Assembly: GCA_017454745.1 (NCBI GenBank)
Contig: JAFTCL010000048.1
Coordinates: forward strand, 22,534 to 86,533
DNA: 64,000 nt
Source of the DNA: Kiritimatiellia bacterium
Lineage (GTDB): Bacteria; Verrucomicrobiota; Kiritimatiellia; RFP12; UBA1067
Direction of reading: 5' to 3'
Below, piece by piece: positions 3,372 to 19,296 of this stretch. The translations under genes and the position numbers were made by a program. Within the stretch, counting starts at the first letter, position 1, and every line of letters begins with the position of its first letter. The notes under the pieces were generated by a model, which saw only the letters and a list, made by a program, of their open reading frames with translations, ran no database searches and was not told the DNA's origin.

Positions 3372-3419
3372 AGGAGGACAGGGTGGGAGGTACGAGATAG
3401 GGAGGGACGCGCCCCGTCG
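3372..3419 (+). repeat. REP-like G-rich repeat GGACAGGGTGGGAG..AGATAGGGAGGGACGCGCCCCGTCGCGAC
   Basis: The same ~35-nt core recurs at 19141-19170. Its 3' part matches the RAYT-flanking arms GGGAGGGTCGCGCTCCGTCGCGAC at 5266 and 5858. Confidence 0.6.
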
Positions 3420-3572
3420 CGACTCCGGGTGGTCCGCCCGGTCCGGGACCTGTCCAGCGGTGACGGACGGAAACAAATCTCTTCCGCTTTTTCAAGGTCT
3501 GGGTCGGCGACGCCCCGATCCCGGCCGAGCCGAAAATGCCAGGTGAGTTTAGATCATGAGCGAAAGGCATAT

Positions 3573-3601: not shown

Positions 3602-3807
3602 TTGTTCAATGGATTGAGTAAATTTGCTCATTGCGATTGGCAAATGACGAATAGAGGAGTGATCCCAGATTCCTCACTTGGGGGTTTCACGCAAACCCTT
3701 GCCGCTCAGCGTCGCTGTGCCTCTGCGTGAGATAGAAATCCTTGTCTAGAAAGCGTAACCGAGGAATTAAGGTTAATGTCCGCAGAAAGACGACGGAAGG
3801 AGAAACC

Positions 3808-5151
3808 ATGAAAACACCAACGACAAAACGCATGCTCGCCGCAGTCGCGGCGGTAACCTGCATCGTAACAGCCGCCCGCGCCGGCAGCGTTCCGGACCAA
3901 TGCCTGGACGCCTGCACGGGCGGCGAGGGCGCCATCCACGTTCAGGGCTGGGCCTATGACCCCGACGCCTCGTCGCAGTCCATCAATGTCCACGTCTATT
4001 TCTATGCCGACTCGGGCTGCACGATCCAGTACGGGGACGTCCGCATACTCACGGCCAACGTGTCGAGGCCCGACGTGAACCAGGCGAAGGGAATCACGGG
4101 CGACCACGGCTTTGCCGCCGACATCCCCGTCTCCAACGCCGGAGACTACTGGGTCAAGCTCTTCGCCATCGACGCCACCGGCGACGGCAATCCGCAGATC
4201 GGCTAGACGAGAAGCGTGACCGTGACGGCGACCGGCTCGCCGTCCGGCGGCTCGTCGGCGGAATCCGGCTGCACCGTCAAGGTCACGAAGTTCCACCAGT
4301 CGTATCCCTACTCGGGCAGGGCGACGGTCGAATACATGGTCGGCGGGACGCTCCCCGCGAACGCCGTCGCGGAAATTATCCTCAATACCGACGACGCGAC
4401 CGCGACCTTCGTCCAGAGCAACGTCGTCGCGGGCGCGAATACGCACGTGATCGACTTCGCCTCGTCCTTCGGCGGCGCGATGCTGCTCACCAATGCCTCG
4501 TTTGTGGTGACGATCACTGGAGAACGGGCTCTCGGCGGCGTGCAACTTTGGGAGAACGGGCCCTACTGGGCGGAGTGCAACGTGGGTGCCACAAAGCCTG
4601 AAGAATACGGTTACTACTTCTGGTGGGGCGACACGGTGGGCTACAAGCGCGAGAACGACGCCTGGGTTGCAGCGGACGGCTCGACGTCCAGCTTCTCGTT
4701 CAACAGCGACAACACGCCCACCTACGGCAAGGACAACGCGACGCTTCTCTCGGAGGGCTGGATCGACTCGACGGGTAACCTCGTGGCGGCGCACGACGCG
4801 GCGACGGCGCACCTCGGCGCACCCTGGCGAATGCCGACGGACGCGGAGTTCTCCGCGCTCCTCGACAACTGCACCACCGAGTGGACGACGCGGAACGGCG
4901 TATCGGGGCAGCTCGTCACGGGCAAGGGCGCATACGCGGACAAGAGCATCTTCCTTCCTGCGGCCGGCTACGGCAACGACTCGCGCCTCTACGGCCTCGG
5001 CTCGTACGGCTTCTTCTGGTCCTCTACGCCGTATTCGGGCAATTCGAACTACGCGTGGAACCTCTACTTCCTTTCGGGCCACATCGACTGGAGCTACGGC
5101 AGCCGCTACGACGGGGTGTCCGTCCGGCCTGTGCGAGGATTTGCCCAATAG
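3808..5151 (+). pseudogene. Secreted FISUMP-domain (Fibrobacter succinogenes major paralogous domain) protein interrupted by an in-frame TAG at 4204-4206. This may be one gene carrying a nonsense codon or readthrough site, or two ORFs (3808-4206 and 4216-5151, the latter starting at GTG).
   Basis: The N-terminal part has a signal peptide (MKTPTTKRMLAAVAAVTCIVTAARA) and an RBS (GGAAGGAG). The C-terminal part (LWENGPYWAECNVGA...YGYYFWWGD...APWRMPTDAEF...YAWNLYF...GVSVRPV) is the FISUMP fold and lacks a signal peptide of its own. Both parts are in the same frame, separated only by TAG. Confidence 0.55.
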
Positions 5152-5199
5152 CGCGCGAATCTCGGGAACAACCTACGGAGAGCAAGAGAGGCGTTCATT

Positions 5200-5778
5200 A
5201 TGAACAACCGGAAACACGAAGGACATGCGGACGCGACGGAGCGCGTCCCACCCCGGGCGGATGTGGGAGGGTCGCGCTCCGTCGCGACCGCCACCACGCG
5301 CGTCCTGCCCGCACGCAAACACCCTTCGCGCAATTCAATCCTGACAACTTGCGACAACCGGGCTATCATTCTTTTCGTCACGGTGGTTACGTGCAATCGG
5401 CAGTGCGTGTTGGCCGATTGCAAGGTGCAATCGGTTATTCTGGACGTATGGAGAAGGACCAAGGGCTGGATCGTTGGGCGTTATGTGATCATGCCGGACC
5501 ATATCCACTTCTTCTGTGCGCCGACGTGCTATCCGCCGTCCGACTTCCATGCCTGGATGGCGTGCTGGAAACGCATGGTGTCGAACCGCTTTCCTTGCCG
5601 GCATTCGTTGCCGTTGTGGCAAAGGGATTGCTGGGATACGCAGTTGCGCCGCAGCGAGAGCTATGCCGACAAATGGGAGTATGTACGCAACAATCCCATA
5701 CGCAAGAGGTTGACAGAGGATGCGGATTCGTGGCCGTTTCAGGGAGAATTGAATGTTTTGCAGTGGCACGACAGATGA
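5200..5778 (+). mobile_element. REP-associated tyrosine transposase (RAYT), an IS200/IS605-family Y1 transposase. The true start is uncertain because the annotated N-terminus overlaps a REP hairpin.
   Basis: HuH motif VIMPDHIHFF, an N-terminal ILFVTVVTCNRQ (YFVT.CT.NR-like) block, and the catalytic-Tyr region SYADKWEYVRNNPIRKRL. Flanked by palindromic REP arms at 5226-5290 and 5797-5884. Confidence 0.75.
5226..5290. repeat. REP hairpin on the 5' side of the RAYT. Its two arms are GGACGCGACGGAGCGCGTCCC and GGGAGGGTCGCGCTCCGTCGCGACC.
   Basis: Imperfect inverted repeat read directly. The same arms recur on the 3' side. Confidence 0.7.
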
Positions 5779-5796
5779 TGTATGGGATGTGCGGAC

Positions 5797-5884
5797 GCGA
5801 CGGAGCGCGCGTTGGATGGGGGTGGACGCGACGGAGCGCGTCCCTCCCGAGACGTGTGTGGGAGGGTCGCGCTCCGTCGCGACC
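5797..5884. repeat. REP cluster on the 3' side of the RAYT: two GGACGCGACGGAGCGCG arms followed by one complementary arm, GGGAGGGTCGCGCTCCGTCGCGACC.
   Basis: Inverted and direct repeats matching the 5'-side element. This gives the REP-RAYT-REP arrangement of a REPtron. Confidence 0.7.
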
Positions 5885-5913
5885 TATGACAAATAGTAAA
5901 GGACATTAATGCG

Positions 5914-7053
5914 ATGAAGATGAACAATTTGATGAGTTGTAAATTGCTGGTGACGTTGTTGCTGCTGCTGGTGGGGCGAGCCGTTTCGGGCGCGCCGCTG
6001 GCGCGGCAGAGCGGCGCGGTGGGCGTCGTCACCTACGACCCGTCGGAAACGCAGACGACGCCGGTCCCGGTTCCGTATGCGTGGCTGGACGGCTATCCCG
6101 AACTGCTCGCGGGGCAGTCCGGCGACTACGAGGTCGCCGCCAACGCGACGGCGGCGAACGGGCGCAAGGTGTGGGCGTGCTATGTGGTGGGGCTGGATCC
6201 GTCCGATCCGCTTGACAACTTCCGCATCACGCGCTTCTGGATGGACGGCTACATGCCGATGTTCGTGGTGAGCCCCACGACGAACGGAAGCGGCCGTTCG
6301 ATCCTGCCCTACGTGAGGCCGCTCGGCAAGGCGGAACTGACGGGCGCGTGGCTGCACGTGCCCGACGGCGGCAGCCCCGCTTTCCGGTTCTTCGCGGCCG
6401 AGGTCGTGCCGCCGGGATGCGAATCCGCCGTTGACGACGGCGTCCAGCTCTGGGCGGACGGGCCCTACTGGGCGAAGTGCAACGTGGGCGCCGCGGCGCC
6501 AGAGGAATACGGCTGCTACTTCTGGTGGGGCGACACCGTGGGCTACAGGCGCGAGAACGGCGCCTGGGTCGCGGCGGACAGCTCGACGTCCGGTTTCCTG
6601 TTCAACAGCGACAACACACCCACCGACGGCAAGGACGACGCGGCGCTTCTGTCGGCTGGGTATATCGACGCGACCGGCAACCTCGTGGCGGCGTATGACG
6701 CGGCGACGGCGCACCTCGGCTCGCCGTGGCGCATGCCGACGGACGCGGAGCTTTCCGCGCTTATCAACAATTGCACAACCAAGTGGATCACCACCAATGG
6801 CGTGTCGGGGCGGCTTGTCACGGGCAAGGGCGCATACGCGGACAAAAGCATCTTCCTTCCCGCGACCGGCTACGGCGACGGTTCGTCCCTCCTCACCACC
6901 GTCAACGGCTGCTGGTCCTCCACGCCAGCCGGTTCGGACAGGGCGTGGCACCTCTTTTTATCTTCGGTCTCCATCGGTGCGTTCGGCTTCGGCCGGTCCG
7001 ACGGGAACCGTTACAAAGGGTTTCCCGTCCGTCCCGTCCGGGACGCCGACTAG
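5914..7053 (+). CDS. Secreted FISUMP-domain protein, a paralog of 3808-5151
   Basis: Signal peptide MKMNNLMSCKLLVTLLLLLVGRAVSGA. The C-terminal ~150 aa are ~85% identical at the nucleotide level to 4541-4985 (LWADGPYWAKCNVGA...YGCYFWWGD...SPWRMPTDAEL...GFPVRPV). Confidence 0.75.
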   Translation: MKMNNLMSCKLLVTLLLLLVGRAVSGAPLARQSGAVGVVTYDPSETQTTPVPVPYAWLDGYPELLAGQSGDYEVAANATAANGRKVWACYVVGLDPSDPLDNFRITRFWMDGYMPMFVVSPTTNGSGRSILPYVRPLGKAELTGAWLHVPDGGSPAFRFFAAEVVPPGCESAVDDGVQLWADGPYWAKCNVGAAAPEEYGCYFWWGDTVGYRRENGAWVAADSSTSGFLFNSDNTPTDGKDDAALLSAGYIDATGNLVAAYDAATAHLGSPWRMPTDAELSALINNCTTKWITTNGVSGRLVTGKGAYADKSIFLPATGYGDGSSLLTTVNGCWSSTPAGSDRAWHLFLSSVSIGAFGFGRSDGNRYKGFPVRPVRDAD

Positions 7054-19034: not shown

Positions 19035-19140
19035 TTTGCAGTCCTCTTGTGTTTGCCTAAAAATCTCCGAACTTGAAACCAATATATATTTTTAGCACAA
19101 CACGGCCGCTTGAGTCAACAATGACTTGCAAAACACGGCG

Positions 19141-19170
19141 GACAGGGTGGGAGATAGGGAGGGACGCCCC
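19141..19170 (+). repeat. Second copy of the REP-like G-rich repeat (GGACAGGGTGGGAGATAGGGAGGGACGCCC)
   Basis: Matches 3372-3416. Lies in an AT-rich leader upstream of the giant gene. Confidence 0.55.
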
Positions 19171-19296
19171 CACGCGAAAAATACGGGGCGAATCGGTTTC
19201 GGCTTGACGGGTAAGGCATACAAATGTTATCTTCATAATATTTTTCTTTTTTCTGTTGCACGTTAAGTTAACGATTGTCAGGAAAGGTTATTAATC

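Follow-up and report, generated by a model that had tools for sequence, protein, structure and literature searches.

Nearly all work on systems in which repetitive extragenic palindromic (REP) hairpins are paired with a REP-associated tyrosine transposase (RAYT, or TnpAREP) has been done in Enterobacteria and Pseudomonas. In Escherichia coli, the gene for TnpAREP (YafM; TnpAY1 subclass 2.2; structure 4ER8) is flanked by inverted pairs of two REP subtypes, Y and Z2, whose hairpins carry a tetranucleotide foot, an arrangement named the REPtron. In Pseudomonas fluorescens, two inverted REPs separated by a short spacer make up a REPIN, which folds into a long hairpin and flanks a single-copy RAYT gene (Bertels and Rainey 2011). 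Class 2 TnpAREP proteins are recognised by a Y...NP signature, as opposed to the Y...Q of IS200 transposases (PMC6006769), and their genes have been catalogued in Cyanobacteria, Bacteroidetes and other phyla (PMC6006769, PMC5581495). The locus described here lies at positions 5200 to 5884 of a 64,000-nt stretch of DNA, hereafter the window, taken from a Kiritimatiellia bacterium (GenBank assembly GCA_017454745.1, contig JAFTCL010000048.1, positions 22,534 to 86,533 of the forward strand). It is very probably a REPtron, composed of an intact class 2 HUH/Y1 RAYT and of clusters of REP hairpins that the enzyme would recognise, and it extends the same REP/RAYT architecture to a rumen-type Kiritimatiellae genome. 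A preliminary description of the window, made from the letters alone, had already proposed this arrangement while calling such systems poorly characterised outside Proteobacteria, which overstates the case given the phyla just listed; a literature search nevertheless returned no paper on a RAYT or a REP in Kiritimatiellota.

The RAYT gene and its REP doublets

At the protein level, the motifs from which the preliminary description had recognised the transposase, VIMPDHIHFF (with H101 and H103) and YVRNNPIRKRL (with Y161), are indeed present in the open reading frame (ORF), and the identity that it drew from them stands. PDHIHFF and Y161-VRNNP are invariant across 28 relatives and align to 4ER8, and every invariant column of the family alignment (40/40) is preserved in the window protein. 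The NCBIfam model NF047646 (REP_Tyr_transpos) matches residues 57-180 with an E-value of 2.5e-20 and 72.8 bits, and the top sequence match in the PDB is E. coli TnpAREP (4ER8, E 1.1e-5), followed by a Sulfolobus IS200 transposase. The same order was obtained with structure. An AlphaFold model built with the 28 relatives reached a pTM of 0.67, with most of the core above a pLDDT of 80, and a Foldseek search of the PDB with this model placed 4ER8 first (E 6.9e-6, TM 0.56/0.64, rmsd 2.6 A over 132 columns), ahead of the IS200, IS608 and ISDra2 TnpA structures (E of 1.5e-3 or higher). The tyrosine motif is of the Y...NP type, that is, class 2, and its WQ and YVRNNP motifs agree with those of subclasses 2.4 and 2.7. 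The segment with which TnpAREP reads the foot of its hairpins aligns to W140, Q141, D146, T147 and R150 of the window protein, within a stretch, [WF]QRDCWD.QLR, that is almost invariant among family members. The window holds one copy of the gene, no tnpB adjoins it, and Rfam and tRNA scans of the window gave no matches.

The hairpins are arranged around this gene in a regular manner (Table 1). The 20-mer GGACGCGACGGAGCGCGTCC is found at 5229-5248 and again at 5824-5843, and its inverted partner GGTCGCGCTCCGTCGCGACC at 5270-5289 and 5865-5884; allowing up to three mismatches, six arm matches occur in the window against 0.01 expected from shuffles. Together these arms build two 61-nt inverted, REPIN-like doublets (5229-5289 and 5824-5884) that flank the RAYT core, with the feet facing inward in both. 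The bracketing reported in the preliminary description is thereby borne out, as are REPs on the 3' side; the extent given there for the latter, 5797-5884, in fact comprises a truncated REP and, beyond it, the 3' doublet. Folding of the flanks as single-stranded DNA, which the same description had suggested, yielded -33 kcal/mol for the 5' doublet (z -5.5 against shuffled sequence) and -39 kcal/mol for the 3' doublet (z -6.4 to -8.9).

Read foot-first, each REP consists of a tetranucleotide foot, a 7-bp G+C-rich stem, a 6-nt pyrimidine-rich loop (CTCCGT) and the other half-stem. Three of the four window REPs have GGAG as their foot, and the fourth (5229-5252) has GGTG, with GTGG one base further from the stem. 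Stems of the GGTCGCG type run in the same direction as the RAYT gene and those of the GGACGCG type in the opposite one, and this division by orientation, one stem type in the gene direction and another against it, holds without exception in the window and in the relatives, and is reminiscent of the Y and Z2 pairs of E. coli. Stem positions 3 and 18 set the arm types apart (A/T versus T/A); the change is compensatory within each small hairpin and therefore leaves two mismatches in the long hairpin of the doublet. Scans of the window for intact hairpins recovered four REPs when anchored on the CTCCGT loop and three when anchored on a GGAGG foot, all of them at the RAYT locus; the second scan misses one REP because of its GGTG foot. 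No terminator-like T-tracts or sites follow either doublet.

Outside the locus, the preliminary description had listed two related copies, at 3372-3419 and 19141-19170. A degenerate REP does exist at 3401-3424, with arms of mixed type and one stem mismatch, whereas the copy at 19140-19176 keeps only a foot and a broken half-stem, and neither of the two elements (3376-3424 and 19140-19176) folds better than shuffled sequence. Both share the 5' extension GGACAGGGTGGGAG and can be described as an element of roughly 45 nt, GGACAGGGTGGGAG..ATAGGGAGGGACGC, that ends in a degenerate REP. The CCCCGT loop of this dispersed element differs from that of the window REPtron and matches the REPtrons of three relatives (L124, L126 and L127).

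Table 1. Features of the RAYT locus, of the degenerate REP copies elsewhere in the window, and of REPs at related loci
Feature	Positions	Strand	Description
RAYT / TnpAREP-like gene	5200-5778	+	192 aa including N-terminal extension; TGA stop 5776-5778; from the ORF list
Conserved catalytic core, R39-R192	5314-5775	+	From the alignment of relatives; conservation begins at RKHPSRNS
HuH motif PDHIH	5494-5508	+	Within the RAYT core
Tyr motif YVRNNPIRKRL	5680-5712	+	Within the RAYT core
5' REP, A-type	5229-5252	-	GGTG foot, GGACGCG stem, CTCCGT loop, CGCGTCC stem; in the ORF, translated DATERVPP
5' REP, T-type	5266-5289	+	GGAG foot, GGTCGCG stem, CTCCGT loop, CGCGACC stem; in the ORF, translated GGSRSVAT
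Truncated/degenerate A-type REP arm	5793-5812	+	3 mismatches; 15 nt past the stop codon
3' REP, A-type	5824-5847	-	GGAG foot on the - strand
3' REP, T-type	5861-5884	+	Pairs with 5824-5847 as the 3' doublet
Degenerate REP-containing element, intergenic	3376-3424	+	GGACAGGGTGGGAG extension, then GGAG-GGACGCG-CCCCGT-CGCGACT
Second copy of the 3376-3424 element, intergenic	19140-19176	+	REP half eroded; foot and broken half-stem only
REP of L120			GGGAGG foot, GTCGCGC stem, tcct loop, GCGCGAC stem
REP of L123			GGGAGG foot, GTCGCG stem, cttgt loop, CGCGAC stem; partnered with GCCGCG
REPs of L128			GCCGGG and GCCGAC stems
REPs of soil metagenome loci			GACGTGC and GCACTG stems

Cognate hairpins in relatives and in other genomes

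The association between this type of RAYT and this type of hairpin was followed in 80 metagenome loci that encode relatives of the window protein, a hairpin being counted as near when it lay within 400 nt of the gene. Perfect hairpins headed by GGAGG are found near the RAYT in 52 of these 80 loci, at a density of 2.27 per kb as compared with 0.10 per kb elsewhere, which represents a 22-fold enrichment. The complete REPtron arrangement, with REPs on both sides of the gene, is also seen at L119, L120 and L123, and the REPtron hairpins of relatives keep the same layout with other stems and loops (Table 1). A scan for the CTCCGT loop in L120, L121 and L123 found no REPs because these lineages use other loops (TCCT, CTTGT), and the scan based on the foot succeeded there. 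In several loci (L134, L147, L163 and L173) copies with the locus's own stem are located kilobases away from the RAYT, and L119 carries three intact sister REPs, together with a fourth imperfect one, 2-4 kb upstream of the gene.

The reality of the stem was addressed through covariation. An initial set of REPs selected for perfect stems was discarded because it would have made the test circular, and the analysis was carried out on 41 distinct hairpin candidates picked by foot and loop only. In this set 91.3% of the cells are paired, versus 67.2% in shuffles, and changes on both sides of the stem affect 63 cells, with 16.3 expected. The covariation score amounts to 0.585, compared with 0.035-0.213 when the partners are slid, and none of 500 shuffles reached either the observed pairing or the observed score. 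The comparison of sequences thus supports a REP stem-loop backed by compensatory change. For the foot the situation is different: its invariant columns are not independent evidence of conservation because GGAGG formed part of the search pattern, and the conservation of the foot is instead supported by the 22-fold enrichment near RAYT genes and by the CTCC found just after the 20-mer in other genomes.

Those other genomes became apparent from a scan of species-representative genomes, in which the exact 20-mer GGACGCGACGGAGCGCGTCC was present in at least 118 stretches, including several contigs each of two rumen Kiritimatiellae metagenome-assembled genomes (MAGs). The stretches listed also span Lentisphaerae, Verrucomicrobiota, Planctomycetota, Terriglobia, Smithellaceae and other groups, and among the matches listed nearly every copy of the 20-mer is followed by CTCC. 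The REP arm is therefore not unique to the window locus, as the preliminary description required for its reading, given these contigs of other genomes and the cognate hairpins that flank 52 of the 80 relatives. The listed stretches contain 295 REP-like hairpins, of which 141 stand alone, 121 belong to inverted pairs and 33 to direct pairs. An identical 24-mer, GGACGCGACGGAGCGCGTCCCTCC, recurs in these stretches (L001-L118) in many phyla, among them members of the Planctomycetes-Verrucomicrobia-Chlamydiae (PVC) group, Terriglobia, Smithellaceae, Fermentibacteria and Eisenbacteria, where it adjoins sister hairpins with other stems and the same foot and loop. This identity across phyla is probably explained by the limited space of possible stems rather than by horizontal transfer: once the foot, the loop and the GG/CC are set, no more than five stem pairs can vary, and unrelated genomes are expected to have some stems in common.

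Judged from its homology to E. coli TnpAREP and IS608 TnpA, the RAYT would bind the folded REP on single-stranded DNA, for instance on the lagging-strand template. The GGAG foot would be read by the [WF]QRDCWD.QLR segment, the counterpart of TnpAREP residues W94, Q95, E100, H101 and R104; a metal ion would be held by His101 and His103, and Tyr161 would cut and rejoin the strand through a 5'-phosphotyrosine link. Over time, REPs and doublets may have been copied or moved in this way to other sites of the genome.

The N-terminal extension and the residency of the gene

A particular feature of the locus is the position of its 5' doublet, which lies in frame within the N-terminal extension of the RAYT, as the preliminary description had recognised when it placed the 5' REP inside the annotated N-terminus. 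This extension is predicted to be disordered, since pLDDT values are mostly below 50 over residues 1-51 and rise to 50 or more from about residue 52. The frame is open from the ATG at 5200, which is preceded, 8 nt upstream, by a GAGAGG motif, and no ATG, GTG or TTG occurs between the 5' doublet and the first beta-strand. All six close relatives have an upstream start whose short leader peptide reads in frame into the core, despite start-to-core distances of 114, 135, 162, 180, 252 and 429 nt. In a relative (L119, 10001-10430; core 82% identical) an extra in-frame segment of about 270 nt, not REP-like, lies between the conserved start, MASIENSLKYE, and the REP doublet. In many more distant relatives, in-frame REP arrays are also inserted between the HuH and Tyr motifs, and in 13 of 13 such loci the frame is kept with no stop codon; since internal arrays are always in frame, REP sequence must be tolerated as protein in this family. 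The window RAYT carries the N-terminal doublet only and has no internal insert. In-frame REPs are not new as a feature, because insertions of this kind inside tnpAREP had already been described for subclasses 2.4 and 2.8 (Quentin et al. 2018).

Related observations were made in other proteins. P0092, P0127 and P0128, which belong to one cluster at 90% identity and are 97-99% identical, contain 1, 3 or 4 copies of the REP unit GGSRSCATEG (10 aa, 30 nt) in their N-terminal array, a difference that points to a recent in-frame change in copy number or, alternatively, to assembly variation. A cluster of five REPs falls within the ORF of the gene downstream of the RAYT in L120 (12339-12574; a 1170-aa member of the FAD_oxidored family) and likewise in L121 (8172-8407), and therefore REPs of this family also sit in other coding sequences.

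On this basis, the 5' doublet is most likely translated from ATG 5200 as a disordered N-terminal tail, and the non-ATG start considered in the preliminary description is unlikely. At the RNA level the 151-nt leader of the messenger folds at -68 kcal/mol (z -3.5) with a long stem, and this strong stem, which the 5' doublet would form in the transcript, may limit the expression of the RAYT. Downstream of the 5' doublet and inside the ORF, a sigma-70-like site is present at 5341-5369 (CTGACA, 17 nt, TATCAT; 10 of 12 matches); it is probably spurious, since chance alone would yield about 0.3 such sites in this region.

The suggestion that the gene might be a decaying copy is contradicted by its pattern of substitution. 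Compared with five relatives (L119 and L124-L127; core 82-86% identical in amino acids), dN/dS, the ratio of nonsynonymous to synonymous substitution rates, is 0.10-0.14 at a dS of 0.7-1.0. The gene was also said to be inserted between two paralogous surface-protein genes. The flanking genes are indeed paralogues, aligning at 55% identity (E 2e-95), and their products have Lcl_C and FISUMP-like C-terminal domains; it is the recency of an insertion between them that does not hold, because a homologue of the upstream gene, of the FISUMP/Lcl_C type and 46-61% identical, directly precedes the RAYT in four relatives (L119, L124, L126 and L127). The fact that these four keep it after the same upstream gene identifies the RAYT as a long-term resident. 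The downstream paralogue has no counterpart at these four loci and is specific to the window genome. Moreover, the RAYT is better conserved than its neighbour, a pattern that corresponds to the housekeeping-like behaviour reported for RAYTs (PMC5581495). As judged from substitution patterns and gene order, the gene is intact, under purifying selection and vertically inherited.

The immediate surroundings (3742-7053) contain three consecutive + strand genes around the RAYT, namely a 154-aa ORF with no Pfam match and then the two Lcl_C/FISUMP-like paralogues, the downstream one of which has a signal-peptide-like N-terminus. The G+C content is 54.5% in the RAYT core (5314-5775), 65-67% in the neighbours (4216-5151 and 5914-7053) and 60.3% in the whole window.

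Rival readings and comparison with described systems

Several observations weigh against the reading of the locus as a REPtron. The NCBIfam score of the RAYT lies under the equivalog cutoff of its model (72.8 versus 80 bits), although the match is significant, and the match to Pfam Y1_Tnp (PF01797) is weak, at 17.4 bits against a cutoff of 23, significant though sub-threshold. The first of these shortfalls is the reason why MBQ9431683.1, a protein encoded on a 93-kb contig of a Kiritimatiellae MAG and 100% identical to the window RAYT, is annotated as hypothetical. The foot is GGAG and not the canonical GT[AG]G, and the string GGAG is absent from the text of PMC6006769 and PMC3733652, even if its position abutting the stem is that of GTAG. 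In five relatives the core is immediately preceded by a GTG, at a place where the window has GCA. None of the 118 listed stretches with the 20-mer encodes a RAYT relative (tblastn), so the REP-RAYT link in them is indirect. Finally, intact REPs are confined, within the 64 kb, to the four of the REPtron, the two further copies are degenerate, and REP activity in this genome is best described as plausible.

Part of this evidence would suit other explanations. The fold and the HuH/Tyr chemistry are common to the TnpA proteins of IS200, IS608 and ISDra2, hairpins are present on both sides of the gene, and the G+C content of the core is well below that of its neighbours, all of which could be expected from an autonomous IS200/IS605-type insertion sequence that had recently landed between the paralogues and whose left and right subterminal ends were the hairpin clusters. 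Such an origin is nevertheless extremely improbable: the tyrosine motif is Y...NP and not Y...Q, the nearest structure is TnpAREP rather than an insertion sequence transposase, the same doublet stands on both flanks where distinct left and right ends would be found, the gene follows the same upstream neighbour in four relatives at a dS of 0.7-1.0, many contigs carry the hairpins by themselves and encode no RAYT relative (among the matches listed), and the window has a single copy with no adjoining tnpB. Hardly more credit can be given to the idea that the insertion of the 5' REP destroyed the start codon and left an inactive remnant. The low dN/dS, the retention of all 40 invariant positions and a frame open from an ATG with GAGAGG upstream speak against decay, and N-terminal tails containing REPs are the rule in the family, including copies under clear constraint; on the other side of the balance stand the want of any ATG, GTG or TTG from the 5' doublet up to the first beta-strand, the GCA that occupies the place of the relatives' GTG, and the small number of REPs in the surrounding 64 kb.

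Two further explanations accept a functional gene and deserve somewhat more weight. According to one of them, translation would begin at a non-canonical codon past the 5' doublet, for example CTG 5305, and the doublet would act as a leader or regulatory hairpin. The conserved protein starts only at R39, residues 1-51 are predicted to be disordered, the GTG of the relatives is right at the boundary of the core, and a leader RNA of -68 kcal/mol with a long stem would hinder ribosomes. This start is still unlikely in view of the upstream start and in-frame leader kept by 6/6 close relatives at varied distances, of an N-terminal array that changes in whole 30-nt units, and of REP arrays that are unquestionably internal and nonetheless in frame in 13/13 cases; besides, the relatives' GTG is preceded by CTCCC, which is not Shine-Dalgarno-like. 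The other explanation holds that the hairpins are no longer mobilised and serve the host as stabilisers of messenger RNA, terminators or protein-binding sites, the RAYT being retained for some other task on single-stranded DNA. A low REP copy number in the window, a housekeeping-like gene, under purifying selection and fixed in place behind the same upstream neighbour, and the modest flanking 16-mer counts of some RAYT groups (Bertels et al. 2017) agree with it. Set against them are the lack of terminator-like T-tracts after the doublets, the variation in REP unit number between near-identical genes, which points to recent change, and the fact that stems vary from lineage to lineage and agree inside any one locus, as would be the case for repeats renewed alongside their enzyme; this use by the host is consequently rated as improbable, slightly more so than the downstream start.

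The REPtron remains the preferred reading, and within it a more specific proposal can be made, tentatively and as a possibility that is still the less probable one: the window RAYT may belong to a distinct, unclassified TnpAREP clade of Kiritimatiellota, other PVC bacteria and probably Acidobacteriota and Desulfobacterota, whose GGAG-foot REPs would routinely lie in frame within the clade's own gene, both at the N-terminus and between HuH and Tyr. If so, the recognition sites would be written into the coding sequence and messenger of the very enzyme that reads them, which could provide feedback on expression or on the integrity of the gene. The GGAG foot that recurs in the sampled relatives, the covarying stem and the two changed foot-reading residues (E100 to D, H101 to T) could together show how RAYTs read their guide tetranucleotide. 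Many odd low-complexity tails and inserts in the predicted proteins of PVC and related MAGs, DATERVPP and GGSRSVAT among them, are accounted for by in-frame GGAG-foot hairpins.

Among described systems, E. coli TnpAREP is the closest to the window RAYT by sequence and fold. The two share the HuH motif, the WQ motif and the Y...NP tyrosine helix, and at both loci the gene is flanked by inverted pairs of two REP subtypes with a tetranucleotide foot. W94, Q95 and R104 of TnpAREP are conserved as W140, Q141 and R150, whereas D146 and T147 stand in place of E100 and H101. The window protein is only about 20% identical to its E. coli counterpart and comes from a different phylum, Kiritimatiellota; its REPs have a GGAG foot in place of GTAG and short, perfect 7-bp stems with no bulge, and one of its doublets lies inside the ORF. 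In this last respect the locus resembles TnpAY1 subclasses 2.4 (Bertels group 4) and 2.8, which also have REPs in frame inside the gene, as do the N-terminus of the window RAYT and many of its relatives. As far as can be compared from described motifs, the WQ motif and a YIxNNP-like tyrosine motif (YVRNNP here) are shared with these subclasses too, and so are low REP copy numbers, reported for group 4 (Bertels et al. 2017), and a patchy distribution across many phyla. Unlike them, the window RAYT has DHIH where they have NH[IFV]H or NHYH, its foot is GGAG and not GT[AG]G, and it carries no internal insert.

The doublets themselves are similar to the REPINs of P. fluorescens in that two inverted REPs with a short spacer form a long hairpin beside a single-copy RAYT. 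They differ from them in the compensated stem position that distinguishes their arms, so that the small hairpins are perfect and the long hairpin has two mismatches. As to the high genome-wide abundance of REPINs, the 64 kb of the window show two degenerate copies outside the REPtron. With the TnpA of IS200/IS605 elements (IS608, ISDra2) the window protein shares the HUH/Y1 fold and, presumably, the hairpin chemistry on single-stranded DNA; in contrast to these elements, it has another class of tyrosine motif, lacks distinct left and right ends and tnpB, and is present in the window as a single copy conserved after the same upstream gene. The system therefore belongs to an established kind; its foot is a variant, one of its REP doublets lies in frame, and it leaves the current picture of REP/RAYT systems unchanged.

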